Origin: Candidatus Methylomirabilis oxygeniifera
Lineage (GTDB): Bacteria > Methylomirabilota > Methylomirabilia > Methylomirabilales > Methylomirabilaceae
Reading direction: 5' to 3'
NCBI GenBank assembly: GCA_000091165.1
Contig: FP565575.1
Span: forward strand, 2,370,001-2,402,000
DNA: 32,000 nt
Part shown: positions 4,089 to 18,196 of the stretch, piece after piece
Layout: every line of letters begins with the position of its first letter
How positions within the stretch are numbered: position 1 is the first letter of the stretch
The notes under the pieces: generated by a model
Database searches by the model: none
Told to the model about the DNA's origin: nothing
Seen by the model: the letters and a program-made list of their open reading frames with translations, nothing else
Program-made: the position numbers and the translations under genes

Positions 4089-4940
4089 TCAGACCACAAG
4101 CGCTCGCAGGCGCGCAATGCGTTCCTCAATGGGCGGGTGGGTGGAGAAGAGCTTGAACAGTACGTCCCCCCGAAGTGGGTTCACGATAAACAGGTGCGAG
4201 GTGGCTGGGTTGGCCTCCATCGGCAGACGGGTGGCGCCCACCTCAAGCGACTGAAGGGCTGAGGCCAAGGCGTACGGCTTGTGGGTCAGTCGGGCGGCCG
4301 ATTCGTCGGCATGGAACTCACGGGACCGCGAGATCGCCAATTGGATGAGGGTCGCTGCGATAGGAGCCAGAATAGCCAGGAACAGAAATCCCAGCGCGCC
4401 GCCTCCACGATCTTCGCTGTCGCGGCTTCCACCGCCGCTAAAGTACGGCATCCACATCGCCATCCTGGCCAGCATCACAATCACGCCGGCGATCGTCGCC
4501 GCGATGGTACTGATCAACGTATCGCGATTCCGCACGTGGGATAGCTCATGGGCCATCACTCCCTCCAGTTCCTCCTCATTAAGAATTCGCAGGATTCCGT
4601 GGGTGGCCGCGACGGCTGCATGTTCCGGGTCCCGTCCGGTCGCAAAGGCGTTCGGAGCCTCAGAAGGAATGATGTAGATACGGGGCATCGGCATTTGGGC
4701 TCTCAGCGCCAGCCCCTGGACAACTCTGTACAGTCCGGGCGCTTCAGCCTCTCCGACAGGCTGGGCTCTGTACATCGCCAGGACAATCCGGTCCGAGAAC
4801 CAATAGCTTCCGAAGTTCATCAGGAAGGCCATGACGAAGGCCACGCTCATCCCCTGACTCCCGCCGAAGTAGCCTCCGATCAGGATCAGCAGGCCGGTCA
4901 GCAGGCCCAACAAGGCTGTAGTTTTCACTGTGTTATTCAT
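4089..4940 (-). CDS. htpX: Zinc metalloprotease HtpX (peptidase M48)
   Basis: [10 protein letters not shown] zincin motif, four hydrophobic segments, and a C-terminal ...[11 protein letters not shown] motif typical of HtpX. Confidence 0.92.
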
Positions 4941-9516: not shown

Positions 9517-9846
9517 TTGGAACCAAACTCTACACATATCGTCGTGTTCATTACGACAAGCTCCAAACAGGAGGCCGAGACGATCGGAAAAGCGCTGATC
9601 GAGTCGCGACTGGCGGCCTGCGTCAACATCATCTCGGCTGGCGTGCACTCCCTCTTTTGGTGGCAGGGAGTGATTGAACGGCAGGACGAAATGCTCATGT
9701 TGGTCAAGAGCCGAAGCGATCTTCTCCCGTCCATCATCGAGCTGGTTAAGGAGTTGCACTCTTACACGGTGCCGGAGGTGATCGCGCTGCCCATTGTTGC
9801 CGGATCCCCTGACTACCTTACCTGGGTGGATGAGTCGTTACGGTAA
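9517..9846 (+). CDS. cutA: Divalent-cation tolerance protein CutA
   Basis: IVVFITTSSKQEAETIGKALIESRLAACVNII...LMLVKS...YTVPEVIALPI is the CutA1 fold signature. TTG start preceded by GAGGAGGG. Confidence 0.85.
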   Translation: MEPNSTHIVVFITTSSKQEAETIGKALIESRLAACVNIISAGVHSLFWWQGVIERQDEMLMLVKSRSDLLPSIIELVKELHSYTVPEVIALPIVAGSPDYLTWVDESLR

Positions 9847-12156: not shown

Positions 12157-12462
12157 TTGAATTCGGGTCGTTGGATGTCATCACATGGGGCACACAGGTC
12201 TTCTCACGTCATTCAGAGCTCACTCGTGCCACCAGGCGGAGCTAACCGGCGTATTCGGTTCATCGCAGGCGTTGCCTTCATTGCCGTAAGCTTTCTGGTC
12301 TACCCATCCTATCTTGTGATTCCACTCCTTCCACTTTCCGGTACGATGAAACTGGGCATCACTCTCCTCGCTTCGCTTCTGAGCTGGGGGATGTTCGGCG
12401 TCGGCTTCTATCTGAGTGGGCGAGAAGGGTATGACTGGCTCAAGCGACGCCTTCGTCGCTGA
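12157..12462 (+). CDS. Small two-TM membrane protein (transporter-suffix-like); start codon uncertain
   Basis: The C-terminal ~75 aa are hydrophobic (FIAGVAFIAVSFLVYPSYLVIPLLPL...LGITLLASLLSWGMFGVGFYL) and end in a basic tail. An in-frame GTG at 12226 is an alternative start. Confidence 0.5.
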   Translation: MNSGRWMSSHGAHRSSHVIQSSLVPPGGANRRIRFIAGVAFIAVSFLVYPSYLVIPLLPLSGTMKLGITLLASLLSWGMFGVGFYLSGREGYDWLKRRLRR

Positions 12463-13126
12463 TCCGCGTCAAGTCGATTGATCGTCCGTTACCCGGCAAG
12501 TGTAGTCCGTCCCATGCTTCCTCCTATCTCTATATTCGCCTGCAGCCAGCCGAGTGGTCATTTACTCAATACGTCTTATCCTTGGAGGCCTGCCGTTCTC
12601 TCCGCACCGCTTTCATTAGAATCGCGTGAGATTGTATACGCCAAAATGCGTATTGACTGATGTGGCCATTTGTTGGATAGTGCACGATTGTGTGCCTACA
12701 CCTATGTGCGATCTCACAGTAAAGTAGGATAGTATGCGGCGAGATACATCTCATGTCGCATTCAGTTCTTGGTAGTCGTTATGGCATGCGTGTAAGTAGA
12801 GGTAGATAATAAAAACGACTCACTTATTGATGACATGACAATAGCGTGTGTTTTTCAGACAACGCCAAGTGCCGATTTCCTGAACTGAAAAGGAGGTGAT
12901 TCTTACAGACTCATGAAGTATCAGGCCGCGGCTTCTTTGGATCACTCTTAGTTATGTGCCGTGAAGTCGTAGGGCCAGCGCAGCCCGGTCGGCTGACTGA
13001 CGTTGCTGTGCCGGGTGTATACGACAGGTGACCCGATTCTTTACTTATCCTGGTGGTCGTGGTGTTCCGCGTGGCGGAGCTCCCGTCGATCCCTGGTACG
13101 TCTAGTAAATGTGGAGGCAAATACGG

Positions 13127-15511
13127 ATGAATGAGATGAGCGTCACAGGCAACTTGCTGGTACGAGGCAAGAGTAATAAGAGGAGAAGTAAGAGTAAAGG
13201 TTTCGCGCTGATCGGCGCATTGTTGGGAACGCTTGCGGCCGTTTCCCCGGGTTCAGCGGCCCAGAGCCCGCAAGTTCGATTGGATCCCGACAGCATCCCA
13301 CAGTTCGCGCAGCCGCTGCCGGGACTCGATCTCGGGGCAGTTGTCAGTAGCGGACCTACCGGTGTAGGTCTCAAGGTGTATGTCGGCGCCGATGCCATCG
13401 TCGGGTCGACCGAGATCCACATCTGCGAATTCGACGCGAGCGTGTTGCCGTCGGGTACACCGGGCGTGACGGCGAAGACGCGCTCATGGGGATATATCGT
13501 AGGTCCATCATGTCCGGCCCCAGGCACGCCGGAATATACACAGGACAGTTATATCGGCCCGGTACTCGTGGCCGTCCGCAACTTACCCTCTACCCTGAAG
13601 TTCGTCAATGACCTCGGGAATGCCGACTCGACTGGAGTGCTGGCGTACAAGTATTCTGTTGACCAGACGATTCACTGGGCCGATCCGCTCGACCTTCATG
13701 CCACGGCCCACTGCTATCACCTGGCCGAGGACGGACACATTCCGGACCCCGGTTCGGAGTGCGCCCAGAACTACGCCGGCCCCATCCCGGCGGCAGTGCA
13801 CCTGCATGGAGGCATCATTCCACCGGAACTGGACGGCGGTCCGGATGCCTGGGTCGCGAGCGACGGTCGCAAGGGTCATGGCTACTATACCTCCGCCCCG
13901 GCCCCGCCCAACGGTTTTACCTACAAGTATCCTAACGCCCAGGAAACTGCCCCACTTATTTTCCACGATCACGTCCTGGGTAACTTGCGTCTGAACCTCT
14001 ACGCGGGGATCGCCGCCGGTTACATCATTGAGGACAATACCCTCATCCCGACAGATGCCACTGGGGTTTGGGGGAGCACCGTTCTCGGTGTTGCCGCTTG
14101 CGACCCGGCTTCCAATAAATGCCTCCCTTCGAATCTGCCAGGCACCGCCGAGATCGTCCCGGTCATTATCCAGGACCGCATATTCGACACCAACGGACAG
14201 CTTTTCTGGCCGGCCGACGATGCGGGCGGTATCCTGTCAAGCCCGAACCCTGAGCACCCTTACTGGGCCCCCGATTTCTTTGGCGATGTCAATGTGGTGA
14301 ACGGCAAGGCGTGGCCGTACCTCGAGGTCCAGCCGAAGCGATACCGCTTCCTCTTCATTAACGCGTCTCACTCGCGCATCTACAACCTGAACCTGGGTGT
14401 ACCGATGTGGGTGATCGGCACGGATGGCGGATACGTAGACACGCCGATTCGGGTCGATAATCTCCTGATCACTTCCGGCGAGCGATACGAAGTCATTATT
14501 GATTTTAAAGGTCTGAATGAGCAAAATCTGATCCTCCGTAATACGGCCGAAGCACCGTACCCGAACGGCACGGCGCCGAAACCAACGACCCTTGGGCACG
14601 TGATGCAGTTCCGCGTTGCGGCTGCGGACGCAGCGGATACCAGCTTCGATCCGGCTTCCGGCAATCGGATACGGGGCAAAGAGGCGCAGATCGTACGTCT
14701 CGTGAAACCGACCAAGGGGAAGTTGGCCGTAAAGAAGAAGAACGTGGCTGTAACTCGCCAGCTCGTCTTTAACGACGTGGACGGCGCGAGCAAGACCGTG
14801 ACCAACCCGGTCACCGGCGAGCCCGGAACTACCTACCTGGGCGGGCGGCTGGAAATCCTGATGAACAATACCAAGTGGTCAGGCGAATCGGATAGGACGT
14901 ATGGCGACTTCACGCCGATTACGCTCAACGGTGTTACGAATAACTACTCTGAGATTGTTCAAGAGGGCAACATCGAAGTGTGGGAGTTTGTCAACCTGAC
15001 CCAGGTGTCTCACGCGCAACACCTGCATGGAGTCGCGTTTCAGGTGCTCAATCGCCAGGACTTCAATAAGGGCGCCTACATGGCGGCCTATGCGACGGCG
15101 TTTCCTGGCGGCGCATTTATTCCAGGCTTCGGCCCACCGTTAGACTATAGGCCGTCATCCGCTTCCGGTAAGAAGTACGGCGGTAACCCCGACATCAAAC
15201 CGTACCTGCAAGGGAAAGTCATACCGCCTCGACCTGAAGAGTCCGCCTGGAAGGACACCGTGATCACCCTTCCCGGTCAGGTGACCAGGGTTGCCGTACG
15301 GTATACGCCTTCCGATCTGCCGATCAGCGCGAAGGCTCAGGATCGGTACTTCCCATTCGATTCGAGCGGTGGCAATCAGAACGGCTTTGTCCACCACTGT
15401 CACATGACCGAACATGAAGACAACGAGATGATGCGAATCAGCCTGGTCACGTTGAACCCCGACGCGCCGGCACCTGCAAGCAGGCTGCTCAAGAAAGGTA
15501 TAGACTACTGA
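13127..15511 (+). CDS. Secreted multicopper oxidase (CotA / bilirubin-oxidase-like, oversized, ~794 aa)
   Basis: All four MCO copper motifs are present: HLHGG (13799-), FHDH (13964-), HAQHLHG (15011-) and HHCHMTEHEDNEMM (15395-15430; C-x4-H-x4-M type-1 site). Start set to the ATG at 13127, 9 nt after GGAGG. The N-region is KRRSKSKGFALIGALLGTLAAVSPGSAAQ, a signal peptide that is possibly Tat-like. Confidence 0.9.
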   Translation: MNEMSVTGNLLVRGKSNKRRSKSKGFALIGALLGTLAAVSPGSAAQSPQVRLDPDSIPQFAQPLPGLDLGAVVSSGPTGVGLKVYVGADAIVGSTEIHICEFDASVLPSGTPGVTAKTRSWGYIVGPSCPAPGTPEYTQDSYIGPVLVAVRNLPSTLKFVNDLGNADSTGVLAYKYSVDQTIHWADPLDLHATAHCYHLAEDGHIPDPGSECAQNYAGPIPAAVHLHGGIIPPELDGGPDAWVASDGRKGHGYYTSAPAPPNGFTYKYPNAQETAPLIFHDHVLGNLRLNLYAGIAAGYIIEDNTLIPTDATGVWGSTVLGVAACDPASNKCLPSNLPGTAEIVPVIIQDRIFDTNGQLFWPADDAGGILSSPNPEHPYWAPDFFGDVNVVNGKAWPYLEVQPKRYRFLFINASHSRIYNLNLGVPMWVIGTDGGYVDTPIRVDNLLITSGERYEVIIDFKGLNEQNLILRNTAEAPYPNGTAPKPTTLGHVMQFRVAAADAADTSFDPASGNRIRGKEAQIVRLVKPTKGKLAVKKKNVAVTRQLVFNDVDGASKTVTNPVTGEPGTTYLGGRLEILMNNTKWSGESDRTYGDFTPITLNGVTNNYSEIVQEGNIEVWEFVNLTQVSHAQHLHGVAFQVLNRQDFNKGAYMAAYATAFPGGAFIPGFGPPLDYRPSSASGKKYGGNPDIKPYLQGKVIPPRPEESAWKDTVITLPGQVTRVAVRYTPSDLPISAKAQDRYFPFDSSGGNQNGFVHHCHMTEHEDNEMMRISLVTLNPDAPAPASRLLKKGIDY

Positions 15512-15578: not shown

Positions 15579-18095
15579 ATGAAGAGCATACAGAGGTTGT
15601 CAATCTATCTCATCATGGCGATAGGGATGTGGATCGGTACGGATGCCGACGCCAGTTCCGTGCAATCGCAAGACCCGGCCGCGATCTTTGCGCGAGCCTG
15701 CGCGACCTGTCATGGCGCAAAGGGTCTCGGAGGTGTCTCGTGGGTCAAGAATAATTCGCGGGATCAGCGAACGGCTCCCCAAATTGCGGGCCACCCTGCA
15801 GACAGCATCAAAGCGATGGTCAGAAGAGGGTCGGAGAATGCCGCAATGCCCGGATTTGGGGTACAGGAGATTACGGATGCCGAGCTGGACGCCTTGGCAA
15901 CCTTTATTCAGGATAACTCGAGCAGCATACCGACACCGGTGAAACCCAGCGGAAAACAGGTGGCCCTGTATGTGCTGGATGCCGATCCATGGTTTACGGA
16001 TCGTGGCGCCGACAATGATGCGGATCCGTTTAATGACGTGAGAAGAGTCGTGCTGGAGCCAGGCCAATACCTGAAGGTTATCAATACCGGTCGCACCTGG
16101 CACAGTTTCACCAGTCTTGAGTCCGGCAAAGACTCCGGATTTATCGGTTACGCCGGGAACTACAAGAATAAGACCAAGGATCTGAATCAGAACCGAAAGG
16201 CAGGTATGGGTTTCTACTACGCCGACCAGACGGCCGGCCTCGCATCGGGCTGCAATAAGTACATTTGTAAGATCCACCCGTACATGACGGTTGAAGTCTG
16301 CACCGCCGGTAGCACCCCGAAAGGGCCGAACGATGTGCTCGGCTTAACGCGGGCGCACAAGCAGCCCCTTGGGCTTCCATCAGTCCCAGGAATCGGCGAT
16401 GAGATATGGGTCAGTGCCCAAAGTCAGGAGGAAGTGGGCGAAAAGACGACGAAAATCAAAAAGAAATCAGTCCGCGACTTTGATGGCGCTTACCAGGTCA
16501 TCAATACCGCTACCTGGAATGTCACCCGCGTCCCCAATGTCGGCAATAACCCACACAATTCCTGGCCGGGTCATACCGCGACGCGGGACGTGGTCGTCTC
16601 AACCAACTGGCATGACAACAGACTGACGTTGATGGATGCCACAACCAAGACCGTTGTCAGGGAATTCCGGTCTGGCGCCACCAACGCGCACGTGATGGCG
16701 GTGCCAGGCGTCGCAAATCGGGATACCTGGTTTGTGAGCCATATGGGCGGTAAGGCGATGGCCGAAATCAGTGTGGACCTGCTTGAACTGGGGACCGACC
16801 CGAATGTCGGCCTCTTGCGTGGCGCGCCAGGGCCTCACGGTCTGTGGATGTGCGACGATACGTATCACTTTATCGTTGCCGACACCTTCAATAACTCGGC
16901 ATCCATGTATGATATCGATTTCGGAAACGTTGCCACCACCGCTACCGGTGGAACGATCCCCCTGGCGACGGGCATCAAGAACGGTTTCGGGCCTGGAGGG
17001 TGCACAAAGGGCTTTGCGGCGAATGCCGGGACCGCCGATCTTGCGGTCTACAATATCACCCCCACCTTGGGCGCCGAGGAGCTTGACCGCGATACGACTT
17101 GGTCTGCCGAACACGCAAATGGCGTCCATAAGAACGTCGCCGGAAACATTGCGCTCAGAGCGACAGACCCCGGAACGGATGTGGCGTCACCCCATGCGCT
17201 TCTGCCGGCAGAAACCATCGAGCAGAAACGGTGGTCCCATCTGCCGATTCAGAGCCCGGTCAGCCCCGTCGACGCCACGACCCACGGGCGTTTCATGGTG
17301 ACGGCCAACAAGGCCAGCTTTAATGTTGTGATTACCGGCCTGGATCCCAGCGGTCGTCCGTGGGGTGTCTTCACCGCACCGGCCGGTCTTGGCGCCCACG
17401 GTGTCAGCTTCGGTAAAAAGAATCGGTGTGACACCAATAACGATGGCGTGGAGGATACGGATGCCTCTGCAGCCGTGATCTGCTATTACGCGTTTGTTAC
17501 CAACACCTTCGAGGATTATGTTAGTGTCTACGATCTGGAGAAGGTCGATGTGAATGACGACAGGGTCATCAACAATCCTGCTGGGTTGGGTATGCAGGGA
17601 CCAGGTTCGGCGCTCTTGACCGAGAACGTCTATCTCGAAGGTGGGGCGGTCGCTGCGGTCGTTGCTCTCGATCCTGGCGTTGCAGGGCTCTGCGGGTCCG
17701 TTCTGAAGTGCGGTACTGGGCCAACCGGTGGAACGTATATCTCGAATCTCCCCATTGGAATCCTTTGTCCGGATTGCCGCAGCGGGGTACACGTTGGCGA
17801 TATTCCGCTCACGCTGACCACCGGCGCGCCGCTGGCCGGTCCTGCAGATACCGTTGCCAACAGCGGTGCCAATGCGAAGTATGTTTATCTGAAGGAGCCC
17901 GTATGGGTAGATACGATGACCGTGGGATGCGCCTTGTCGGCAAACGACTGCGACAATACTGCAGGCGAACCGTTCGGAGCGGGCACAGAAGTAGGAAACC
18001 TGAACACACAAGTGACACTTGACTTGGAGCTTGGAACGAATACGGGCGCTCAGGGTATTGTGGTACGACCGGCTTCAGCGCCGTGGACGCCGTAG
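15579..18095 (+). CDS. Secreted fusion protein: class I cytochrome c + amicyanin-like type-1 Cu cupredoxin + YVTN-like beta-propeller + Cys-paired C-terminal domain
   Basis: GAAGGAG SD 9 nt upstream. Sec signal peptide ending ...TDADA. Heme motif CATCH (15699-15713) with downstream AAMPGF. Type-1 Cu ligands H175 (TWHSF, 16101) and C230-K-I-H233-P-Y-M236 (16266-16286). Recurrent propeller-blade motifs are NPHNSW...VVVSTNWHDNRLTLMD, GPHGLWM...HFIVADTFNNSASMYD and GAHGVSF...YAFVTNTFEDYVSVYD. The C-terminal ~140 aa carry three closely spaced Cys pairs. Confidence 0.8.
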   Translation: MKSIQRLSIYLIMAIGMWIGTDADASSVQSQDPAAIFARACATCHGAKGLGGVSWVKNNSRDQRTAPQIAGHPADSIKAMVRRGSENAAMPGFGVQEITDAELDALATFIQDNSSSIPTPVKPSGKQVALYVLDADPWFTDRGADNDADPFNDVRRVVLEPGQYLKVINTGRTWHSFTSLESGKDSGFIGYAGNYKNKTKDLNQNRKAGMGFYYADQTAGLASGCNKYICKIHPYMTVEVCTAGSTPKGPNDVLGLTRAHKQPLGLPSVPGIGDEIWVSAQSQEEVGEKTTKIKKKSVRDFDGAYQVINTATWNVTRVPNVGNNPHNSWPGHTATRDVVVSTNWHDNRLTLMDATTKTVVREFRSGATNAHVMAVPGVANRDTWFVSHMGGKAMAEISVDLLELGTDPNVGLLRGAPGPHGLWMCDDTYHFIVADTFNNSASMYDIDFGNVATTATGGTIPLATGIKNGFGPGGCTKGFAANAGTADLAVYNITPTLGAEELDRDTTWSAEHANGVHKNVAGNIALRATDPGTDVASPHALLPAETIEQKRWSHLPIQSPVSPVDATTHGRFMVTANKASFNVVITGLDPSGRPWGVFTAPAGLGAHGVSFGKKNRCDTNNDGVEDTDASAAVICYYAFVTNTFEDYVSVYDLEKVDVNDDRVINNPAGLGMQGPGSALLTENVYLEGGAVAAVVALDPGVAGLCGSVLKCGTGPTGGTYISNLPIGILCPDCRSGVHVGDIPLTLTTGAPLAGPADTVANSGANAKYVYLKEPVWVDTMTVGCALSANDCDNTAGEPFGAGTEVGNLNTQVTLDLELGTNTGAQGIVVRPASAPWTP

Positions 18096-18122: not shown

Positions 18123-18155
18123 ATGAGGAGGGGATGCCAAACATCCCCTCCTCAT
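18123..18155 (+). terminator. Rho-independent terminator of the MCO operon
   Basis: Perfect 14-bp stem ATGAGGAGGGGATG / CATCCCCTCCTCAT with loop CCAAA, followed by TCTATTTC, 28 nt after the stop codon. Confidence 0.75.
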
Positions 18156-18167
18156 TCTATTTCAGAT

Positions 18168-18196
18168 TTGACAACCTGAGGTCCCTTCCGTACAAT
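18168..18196 (+). promoter_or_regulatory. Candidate sigma70 promoter for the nucleotide-sugar cluster
   Basis: TTGACA-N17-TACAAT, a near-consensus match, about 115 nt upstream of the rmlA GTG. Confidence 0.6.

Follow-up and report, generated by a model that had tools for sequence, protein, structure and literature searches.

Nitrous oxide reductase (NosZ) is a periplasmic copper protein in which a cupredoxin is combined with a seven-bladed propeller that carries histidines at the starts of its innermost strands; some forms add a haem c. In copper nitrite reductase (NirK), a type-1 (T1) copper feeds a His-ligated catalytic copper, and electron-transfer domains can be fused to the enzyme. Here we analyze an open reading frame (ORF) that recalls both systems. 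It lies at positions 15579..18095 (+ strand) of a 32,000-nucleotide stretch of DNA ("the window") from Candidatus Methylomirabilis oxyfera (species name also written "oxygeniifera"; contig FP565575.1, positions 2,370,001 to 2,402,000 of the forward strand). The 838-aa product unites a c-type cytochrome, a T1 cupredoxin and a YVTN-type beta-propeller in one polypeptide, and in Methylomirabilis it represents a large, uncharacterised family of proteins that combine a cupredoxin with a propeller that has four histidines at its hub (His4-hub propeller). By analogy, the protein would work most like NosZ or NirK, with a cupredoxin feeding a His-ligated metal site. We hold with fairly good confidence that it is a redox enzyme with a putative metal site at the propeller hub.

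The product is identical over its length (100% identity) to CBE69849.1 (UniProt D5ML09), which bears only the source label "cytochrome c". Database names of family members include "cytochrome c", "YVTN family beta-propeller protein", "lactonase family protein", "YncE/plastocyanin" and "multicopper oxidase domain-containing protein". Searches of Pfam, NCBIfam and structures returned neither a model nor a solved structure that describes the cupredoxin and His4-hub propeller family, and a full-text literature search returned no paper on the family or on the accessions CBE69849 and D5ML09. A preliminary description of the locus, made without database searches, had listed the ORF, its motifs and the three fold types in their order. 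The ORF and every motif position (CATCH, AAMPGF, H175, C230-H233-M236 and the Cys motifs) were confirmed, and the fold types and their order are borne out by the domain and profile matches given below, which chance comes nowhere near explaining. The AlphaFold2 model of the 838-aa protein, with 35 homologues as input, is confident (predicted local distance difference test score, pLDDT, 86; predicted template modelling score, pTM, 0.90), with pLDDT <50 for aa 1-25. Residues 1-26 (15579..15656, +) read as a Sec signal peptide with a hydrophobic core and a probable cleavage site between DADA and S. Attachment of haem c requires export of a protein, and we predict that the 838-aa product is exported and periplasmic.

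The class-I cytochrome c domain (15669..15914, +; aa 31-112) matches PF13442 (E=1.4e-12, 48.2 bits against a curated cut-off of 27) and also PF00034 (E=1.2e-7). Its motifs comprise the haem attachment site C41-A-T-C44-H45 (CATCH, 15699-15713, +) and the axial M90 (15846-15848, +) within AAMPGF (aa 88-93). C41, C44, H45 and M90 are unchanged across the 35 aligned sequences, and the domain is a class I c-type cytochrome with a His/Met haem. The region that follows (15945..16304, +; aa ~123-242) is an amicyanin-type T1 copper cupredoxin, with the motif ligands H175 (in TWHSF; 16101-16103, +) and C230, H233 and M236 (C230-K-I-H233-P-Y-M236; 16266-16286, +). Pfam has no match for this domain in the window protein, and PF00127 is matched directly by 4/13 family members, which are distant ones. 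A profile built from 13 homologues and run against the PDB, in contrast, found the NirK-fused cupredoxin 9cck at 9e-10, followed by amicyanins at 1e-5. All four T1 copper ligands (4/4) align to those of amicyanin with identical C-x2-H-P-(F/Y)-M spacing, in agreement with the ligand loop that the preliminary description had called amicyanin-type. That description had named beforehand a lack of ligand conservation among homologues as the observation that would speak against it; in the 45 diverse bacterial and archaeal members over which we counted conservation, here and at the hub, H175, C230, H233 and M236 are kept in 43-45. We conclude that aa ~123-242 are a T1 (blue) copper cupredoxin with an amicyanin-like loop. 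Amicyanin proper is ruled out: the cupredoxin is a domain of an 838-aa protein and not a free protein of ~105 aa, and the window has no mau genes. The amicyanin equivalog TIGR02657 is not matched by the window protein. Two cysteines, C225 and C241 (16251-16253 and 16299-16301), flank the T1 ligand loop and are gained and lost jointly across clades; they probably form a clade-specific disulfide and do not supply a second copper ligand.

The remainder of the protein (16362..18092, +; aa ~262-838) is a YVTN/YncE-type propeller of a generic kind. A family propeller profile run against the PDB finds the archaeal YVTN propeller 1l0q at 3e-24. PF21783 is matched above its cut-off in 5/10 relatives (best 1.5e-12) and reaches 15.8-16.6 bits in the window protein itself, against a cut-off of 27.1. 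DSSP assignments on the AlphaFold2 model give runs of four strands per blade, and there are seven strand-A motifs (G-x-x-P/A-X-G) in the propeller; taken together, these suggest seven blades. The closing blade would be built from N-terminal strands and the C-terminal strand 824-830, and minimal homologues and the DSSP strands indicate that aa ~809-838, the true C-terminus, give its inner strand. The YVTN-type blades of the preliminary description stand as a fold, but not with the extent of ~400 aa given there, since the region covers ~577 aa including ~200 aa of insertions. The Cys pairs are where they had been placed (LCGSVLKC 704-711, LCPDC 729-733 and GCALSANDC 783-791), but they do not form a tail. 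They belong to clade-specific insertions that separate strands within the last blades (17541..18008, +; C705/C711, C730/C733 and C784/C791, together with H738), which are gaps in the minimal members of ~580 aa (P0047-P0051, P0041-46) and have lower pLDDT. These insertions are probably disulfide-stabilised loops.

The striking feature of the propeller is its hub. Four blades carry a histidine there: blade 1 in G322-N-N-P-H326-N-S-W329 (16542..16565, +; N323, P325 and H326 in 45/45), blade 2 in N-A-H371-V (16683..16694, +; H371 in 44/45), blade 3 in G-P-H420-G-L-W (16830..16847, +; H420 in 44/45) and blade 6 in G-A-H607-G...K614 (17391..17420, +; H607 in 45/45, K614 in 37/45). The equivalent position is the hydrophobic L462 in blade 4, and Gln or Asn in blades 5 and 7. 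Blade 5 has L-P-I-Q558-S-P-V-S-P (17241..17267, +), with Q558 in 41/45 at the His position, and the inner strand of the closing blade has T-G-A-Q825-G-I-V-V (18042..18065, +), with Gln in 28/45 and Asn in 11/45. The preliminary description had a His in each blade turn, which is correct for 4/7 blades and incorrect for the others (L462, Q558, Q825). Near the hub, W344 (45/45) and Q281 (42/45) are also conserved, and W329, W344, W277 and W423 are invariant. H738 (only 10/45), H345 (16/45) and D741, which are clade-specific (10-16/45), were considered as universal site residues and rejected for that reason, as were CPDC and the other Cys pairs. The universal signature consists of one T1 copper and four His on blades 1, 2, 3 and 6.

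Several observations speak for a functional site. In the AlphaFold2 model, H326, H371, H420 and H607 each lie at residue 1-3 of the first (innermost) strand of their blade. A profile alignment places them at the "P-x-G" position of the YVTN repeat, where the solved YVTN S-layer propeller has M, Q, L and K. With few exceptions, the invariant residues of the propeller fall in D-A loops, at strand-A starts or at strand-B ends, and by general propeller topology they should lie on one face around the mouth of the channel. Divergence elsewhere in the protein reaches ~25% identity, while the hub His are kept in 44-45/45 across two domains of life. The motifs that we propose for the family, C-x2-H-P-[YFW]-M, N-x-P-H-[NSG], [AST]-H-[VI], P-H-[GA] and G-x-H-G, are conserved across the 45 members and are all present in the window protein. 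Because of the invariance of the His residues, their placement on strand A and their NosZ-like position, it is likely that the four meet at the upper end of the central channel, where they would ligate a catalytic metal.

The NosZ-like position derives from a PDB profile search in which NosZ alignments were weak (E=0.01 and 0.25). In these alignments, GAHG (H607) of the family faces GIHG of NosZ, GPHG (H420) faces NPHG, and PLA (L462) faces PLHT. The spacing of the aligned NosZ His (143 and 55 residues) assigns them to three CuZ ligands of the M. nauticus enzyme, H181, H323 and H378; on this weak alignment, and by spacing, H607 would pair with H181 and H420 with H323. The idea in the preliminary description that blade His residues make up a metal site like those in the propellers of NosZ or thiocyanate dehydrogenase (TcDH) has thus become the reading that we favor, given that the four His are invariant and two of them appear to occupy CuZ-ligand positions. 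There is a further likeness to L-NosZ, which also has a YVTN/lactonase-type propeller; L-NosZ is reportedly the lactonase-type clade III NosZ of He et al., Nature 2025. There are also differences. NosZ has a CuA site with two Cys, whereas the window protein has a T1 site with a single conserved C230 and a variable C225. The cupredoxin is C-terminal in NosZ, but N-terminal to the propeller here. CuZ has seven His, compared with four hub His in the window protein, in which the other positions are L462, Q558 and Q825. Finally, the window protein has no nos accessory genes nearby and is instead partnered by an O2-reducing multicopper oxidase (MCO). The window protein did not match PF18764/PF18793, TIGR04244/04246 or the NosZ_RR and NosZ_Gp models, nor, at E<=1, the L-NosZ model NF052460 (an equivalog with a threshold of >=700 bits). 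Weak matches to the L-NosZ model occur in 6/10 relatives (best 2.5e-16, 35-51 bits) and can be attributed to the shared YVTN fold. Membership in NosZ or L-NosZ was rejected because of the T1 rather than CuA site, the four versus seven His, the reversed domain order and the unmatched models.

NirK (9cck, 6hbe) has the nearest solved cupredoxin, but its catalytic unit is a trimer of two-cupredoxin chains in place of a propeller, and the Cys-His bridge between its T1 and T2 coppers is absent from the family. The methylamine dehydrogenase (MADH)-amicyanin-cytochrome c551i chain, which the ORF had been said to recapitulate, has the same three fold types and an amicyanin-type loop, and electrons probably flow through it in the same direction; the parts of the window protein, however, lie on one polypeptide, without the light chain that carries tryptophan tryptophylquinone (TTQ) and without MauG. 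The MADH heavy chain is absent from the PDB profile search at E<=10 and from the Foldseek top 50, and a specific kinship with MADH did not hold up. Because the MADH propeller carries no cofactor, the resemblance is an analogy of fold types only. The preliminary description was right that this is no canonical MADH, as no mauA-, mauG-like or other mau gene is present in the window, and MADH membership was rejected for the lack of a sequence or fold match and of mauA/mauG in the window. TcDH is a propeller enzyme with a His-ligated copper site at the hub, at which a small substrate is oxidized and from which electrons pass to a cytochrome c. The TcDH site is a trinuclear copper site, and the enzyme has no cupredoxin. 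Neither the PDB profile search (E<=10) nor the Foldseek top 50 contains it, and membership was rejected for lack of any sequence or fold match.

The Foldseek list is led by cd1 nitrite reductase NirS, NirN and NirF, with TM-scores of 0.25-0.28 and root-mean-square deviations of 16-20 Å over the full length. PF02239 gives weak matches in 3/10 relatives and none in the window protein itself, and the seven blades counted compare with eight in d1. The rank of cd1 NirS probably reflects the generic combination of cytochrome c and propeller in the model, and we would not place the protein in that family. Carotenoid cleavage oxygenases are an unrelated class of propellers without redox domains and are absent from the top fold matches. 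ACO/RPE65 hold Fe(II) at the axis of a seven-bladed propeller through four His, on three consecutive blades and one three further on, a blade spacing that the family would share. This comparison would be an analogy of site geometry only.

A protein search over 5.8 billion sequences recovered 54 relatives of the same architecture, and the propeller profile run against 1.84 billion representatives gave 103 matches at E<=1e-30. Most of the single-stretch matches to the propeller profile lack the cytochrome c, but almost all have a C-x2-H-P-[YFW]-M cupredoxin directly before the propeller. Cupredoxin and propeller form an ancient, conserved core across Bacteria and Archaea, from which the cytochrome c is dispensable, a point absent from the preliminary description. 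Five kinds of redox modules are joined to this core: the N-terminal haem c (Methylomirabilis clade), a C-terminal IPT/TIG plus TsdA/SoxA-like dihaem module (P0033-37), a multihaem tail (P0052), an extra cupredoxin (P0117), and an N-terminal two-domain, SLAC-like, laccase-type MCO with an HCH...H...M motif (SLAC match 1e-15). The last of these is the fusion counterpart of a gene pair in the window, in which an MCO gene directly precedes the ORF.

We also scanned one genome per GTDB species and kept the best 80 of 210 relatives. Among these best 80, full-length cytochrome-fused relatives come from a Nitrospirae aquifer metagenome-assembled genome (MAG), Rhodocyclaceae, Acidobacteriota, Planctomycetota and Fimbriimonadia. 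The rest are mostly from Nitrososphaeraceae, Nitrosocosmicus and Fervidifonticultor, with others from Nitrosomonas, Nitrospira(ceae), Methylocystis, Methylococcus and Rokubacteria; members in Nitrosocaldus and Nitrososphaera were found by name. Members coupled to an MCO are found mostly among soil and thermophilic ammonia-oxidizing archaea (AOA), Nitrosomonas/Nitrosospira, Nitrospira, Methylocystis and Methylococcus. The Nitrosocosmicus fusion (~930 aa; L049 4465-7272) has >1100 relatives at E<=1e-10 and, across 91% of its length, shares 45-48% identity with the Nitrosospira proteins P0325 and P0332, which suggests gene exchange between archaeal and bacterial ammonia oxidizers. AOA probably do not all have the family, as no Nitrosopumilus was found by name among the best 120 matches.

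The partners are distributed in a complementary pattern. In the cytochrome-fused clade, 20/22 loci have an N-terminal haem c, and in 0/22 is an MCO fused or directly upstream. The N-terminal haem c is absent (0) from all remaining groups. An MCO is fused to the core in 24/29 AOA loci and in 4/5 Nitrosomonas loci, with none directly upstream in either group; conversely, it is never fused but lies directly upstream in 5/7 loci of Methylocystaceae, 4/4 of Methylococcus and other gammaproteobacteria, and 2/6 of Nitrospira(ceae). Several of the loci scored without a partner end at contig edges, and one MCO-adjacent Nitrospira locus was confirmed by Pfam. Haem c and MCO are therefore complementary, interchangeable partners of the core. 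Among the loci scored, only Methylomirabilis has a fused haem c together with an adjacent MCO. No operon partner is common to the whole family in the loci inspected; the recurrent neighbors are each bound to lineages, namely the MCO (nitrifiers, methanotrophs and NC10), a SurA_N-like gene, and a Fer4_5/TPR protein (Planctomycetota and Fimbriimonadia).

The MCO gene upstream of the ORF (13109..15511, +) was not part of the preliminary description and is the most informative functional link. It encodes an 800-aa, three-domain type MCO with a Tat-like RR leader, in which all four copper motifs (4/4) are present: HLH231-233, HDH286-288, H635-x2-H638-L-H640 and H763-C-H765...H769...M774. It matches Cu-oxidase, Cu-oxidase_2 and Cu-oxidase_3 of Pfam and PhsA/CueO-like models of NCBIfam. 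A gap of 67 nt without a strong terminator separates it from the ORF; the only hairpins found there are weak ones of 5-6 bp that lie inside the MCO ORF and are within the expectation from shuffled sequence. The pair is kept in other Methylomirabilis (L005/L006), in which the downstream genes differ. The conserved pairing, the short gap without a strong terminator and the fused or adjacent MCOs of other lineages make it likely that the MCO is an operon partner of the ORF. The two-domain type C MCOs of nitrifiers are of the same SLAC-like kind as the fused or adjacent MCO of the family. They are discussed in the literature consulted as candidate components of hydroxylamine oxidation in AOA and are treated there as stand-alone proteins; we found no paper that mentions an attached cupredoxin and propeller.

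Together, our data suggest a model in which a small substrate would be oxidized at the putative hub metal site. If NirK and NosZ are a guide, one or two copper ions are the likeliest occupants of that site, and single electrons would be exchanged between it and the cupredoxin. In Methylomirabilis, electrons would pass from the hub to the T1 copper, to haem c, and then to the MCO (and O2) or the respiratory chain; in other lineages, the T1 copper would pass them to an MCO and O2, or to a cytochrome c and the respiratory chain. Haem c (in the Methylomirabilis clade) and the MCO (in the nitrifier and methanotroph clades) would act as interchangeable electron outlets, with Methylomirabilis having both. 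We know of MCOs only as electron sinks that reduce O2, and since MCO and haem c substitute for each other, both modules would be outlets. The propeller, in turn, would be redox-active, because the core always comes with modules for electron transfer. The complementary haem c and MCO partners lend some support to the direction from dehydrogenase to cupredoxin to cytochrome c that the preliminary description had assumed. Taken as a whole, the proposal that the product is a periplasmic oxidoreductase with three redox centers, in which an oxidative hub delivers electrons through T1 copper and haem c to the MCO and O2, seems to us about evenly poised between right and wrong.

A number of points weigh against this proposal. 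Foldseek places the propeller among generic and partly non-catalytic propellers (YVTN S-layer protein, lactonases and the hydrazine synthase subunit HZS-beta). The convergence of the four His and the distance from T1 copper to hub are deduced from sequence, and the four His could equally bind Fe or Zn. The order of haem c, cupredoxin and catalytic part is also that of reductases such as three-domain NirK, and the haem c-bearing NosZ, likewise a reductase, has its haem c at the C-terminus. High-potential carriers would suit the reduction of N2O, NO, nitrite or O2. The cytochrome c clade does without the MCO, and its neighborhoods vary. No Nitrosopumilus name occurs in the best 120 matches, and Planctomycetota, Acidobacteriota and Fimbriimonadia also carry the family, a distribution that makes it unlikely that its function is bound exclusively to the oxidation of ammonia or methane. 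Some of these points favor the opposite direction, in which haem c would feed the T1 copper and N2O, NO, nitrite or O2 would be reduced at the His-lined hub, following the logic of NosZ and NirK on a new scaffold. The pairing of cupredoxin and propeller and the positions of the His match the NosZ design, the weak L-NosZ matches occur in six of ten family propellers, and a nitrite reductase carries the nearest solved cupredoxin as a fused domain. Sulfuricaulis-type loci have Nar/Nxr-type genes, NMO and hemerythrin/DUF2249 nearby, NnrS occurs in Methylocystis loci, and fusion to the TsdA-like, thiosulfate-oxidizing dihaem module (P0033-37) would make a self-contained enzyme from donor to acceptor. 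A reductase would, however, be left without an electron source where the O2-reducing MCO replaces haem c, as it does in most lineages, since the hub would then be a sink as well. The four rather than seven hub His, the T1 copper with the variable C225 instead of CuA, the absence of nosDFYL genes from the window and the loci inspected, and the lack of an L-NosZ match of the window protein at E<=1 also argue against it, and we regard a reductase as rather unlikely.

The hub might instead bind a metal as substrate, Cu(I) in the first place, which would be oxidized via T1 copper to the MCO or cytochrome c, or it might serve in copper storage or delivery. Such a role would fit the enrichment of the family in organisms with copper membrane monooxygenases, the resemblance of the MCO partner to cuprous and metallo-oxidases (NCBIfam matches to CueO, CopA and MnxG-like models), the CutA1 gene located 3 kb upstream in conserved synteny, the Cus/Czc-type efflux genes in L002 and L010, and the CcoG/NosR-type Fer4_5 protein that adjoins members of the cytochrome c clade in 5 genome-scan loci and in L003/L004; one member also weakly matches the Zn chaperone propeller AztD. 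Yet it is established that MCOs oxidize metals without a helper domain, copper genes are neighbors in only a few loci of particular lineages, and the invariant T1 site and large conserved polar pocket (N323, N327, Q281, Q558, Q825) speak for small-molecule catalysis rather than the transfer of ions, so that we consider metal handling unlikely. If the propeller were not catalytic at all, it could be a docking or binding scaffold for a shuttle of cupredoxin and cytochrome, with His that are structural or ligate structural ions. The MADH heavy chain, HZS-beta, YncE and S-layer YVTN proteins are precedents for scaffolds, and the best structure and sequence matches (1l0q, HZS-beta, YncE) are generic or non-catalytic. 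This is improbable in view of the four His and their neighbors, which are kept in 44-45/45 across two domains of life while the rest falls to ~25% identity, of the M, Q, L and K that the solved YVTN S-layer protein has in their place, and of the clustering of conserved residues on one propeller face. The invariance of W329, W344, W277 and W423 further raises the thought of a true MADH analogue, in which W329 or W344 would be converted by a MauG-like enzyme to a Trp-derived cofactor (TTQ or kynurenine), and genes similar to MauG or di-haem cytochrome c peroxidases do occur near members in L009 and L059. Neither the window nor the other ~85 loci inspected contain a MauG-like gene, a light-chain analogue is lacking, and invariant Trp are common as packing residues of propellers; we therefore attach very little weight to this explanation.

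Should the hub of the oxidoreductase that we favor bind a catalytic metal, the family would be an unrecognized class of copper oxidoreductases that applies the NosZ/NirK principle on a different scaffold, and probably in the oxidative direction. As to its substrate, NO or hydroxylamine, or else copper, is suggested by the concentration of the family in organisms that have copper monooxygenases. We would rank NO or hydroxylamine first, Cu(I) next and others thereafter, each one being doubtful or unlikely when taken singly. The distribution is striking in any case, with members fused or adjacent to MCOs in terrestrial AOA, ammonia-oxidizing bacteria (AOB), Nitrospira and methanotrophs, and members with a fused cytochrome c in Methylomirabilis and in several lineages of denitrifiers or sulfur oxidizers. 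The family is of high interest because of its presence in nitrifiers and methanotrophs, groups in which several enzymes have yet to be found. The archaeal enzymes for NO dismutation and N2O reduction are explicitly described as unidentified in the literature. The oxidation of NO or hydroxylamine in archaea is a further gap in the nitrogen cycle without an identified enzyme. To our knowledge, the "third enzyme" of bacterial ammonia oxidation also lacks an identified enzyme. For these missing steps the family is a concrete candidate with defined ligand residues, and two of its hosts, Methylocystis and Methylococcus, are open to genetic work. That the core is indeed the copper enzyme still missing from the turnover of nitrogen intermediates in organisms whose membrane monooxygenases contain copper we nonetheless judge quite unlikely. 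If it were, candidate reactions would be those of an NO or hydroxylamine oxidoreductase or, alternatively, the turnover of NO and N2O in the oxygen-producing pathways of Methylomirabilis and AOA. If, on the other hand, the substrate is Cu(I), the family would be a conserved module for copper handling in organisms that need copper for their key enzymes.

In the window, the ORF has a Shine-Dalgarno sequence (GAAGGAG) 8 nt 5' of its ATG. The transcription unit of MCO and ORF is closed by an intrinsic-terminator-like hairpin (18123..18155, +; 14-bp stem with 8 G-C), after which a near-consensus promoter at 18168-18196 serves the next gene. The remaining neighbors are not redox-related and comprise genes for the heat-shock proteins DnaJ, Hsp20 and DnaK, CutA1, an SLT/LysM transglycosylase and nucleotide-sugar biosynthesis. 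CutA1 (divalent-ion/copper tolerance) is encoded at 9517-9846 (+), 3 kb upstream of the MCO. Between the transglycosylase and MCO genes lies a 101-aa ORF (12157-12462, +) with two hydrophobic stretches and no Pfam match. The order Hsp20-DnaK-CutA1-SLT/LysM-small ORF-MCO-ORF is conserved in another Methylomirabilis (L005), with CutA1 at 2215-2550 and a 78-aa gene (4697-4933) at the place equivalent to the 101-aa ORF.

The MCO-coupled members show several peculiarities. In AOA and AOB, a degenerate two-domain MCO paralogue is encoded directly 5' of the fused gene (L045 3334-4437, L059 3399-4421, L033 2990-4138 and others); it keeps the first HxH and HDH and has lost the HCH/T1 motif. The upstream MCO of Methylocystis and gammaproteobacteria, by comparison, is complete. 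One Nitrosomonas sp. (L079 1570-9651) has two tandem pairs of an MCO-like protein of ~350-375 aa and an MCO-cupredoxin-propeller protein of ~910-919 aa. Many MCO-coupled or membrane-anchored members (P0053, P0088, P0093, P0112, P0116, P0129) contain an extra segment of ~90-150 aa between cupredoxin and propeller, with the consensus ...LVNGI.VPT.SDLA.RLL.TFF.AT.P.NW.DY... and no Pfam match.

Among cytochrome-fused members, those extended by a dihaem module have two IPT/TIG domains and a TsdA/SoxA-like dihaem part with the motif ...GRIQGCLxRSMN... (P0033-P0037; L002 8001-11597; L017 4615-9561), and would hold two potential catalytic redox sites per protein. The SurA_N-like gene (chaperone N-domain) lies directly 3' of cytochrome-fused members of ~700 aa (L001 12190-12855, L002 11629-12279, L009 9824-10387) and has no counterpart in the window. 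A membrane protein that combines Fer4_5 (NosR/CcoG/NapH-type) with TPR recurrently adjoins members from Planctomycetota and Fimbriimonadia (L021 3920-5788, L020, L022, L024, L027, L003 5881-7869). The MauG/di-haem cytochrome c peroxidase-like genes were found near members in two loci only (L009 11518-17812, L059 7347-8798). Full-length homologues with 44-72% identity occur in L011, L013, L015 and L019, which are labelled Patescibacteria, Uhrbacteria and Bifidobacteriaceae; these MAG labels look like binning errors. As for other gene context, methanotroph loci contain NnrS (Methylocystis), an ECF sigma factor and SirB, Sulfuricaulis-type loci contain Nar/Nxr-type genes, NMO and hemerythrin/DUF2249, and copper or metal genes are represented by CutA1 in Methylomirabilis and by Cus/Czc-type efflux genes in L002 and L010. 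All of these context hints are lineage-specific.

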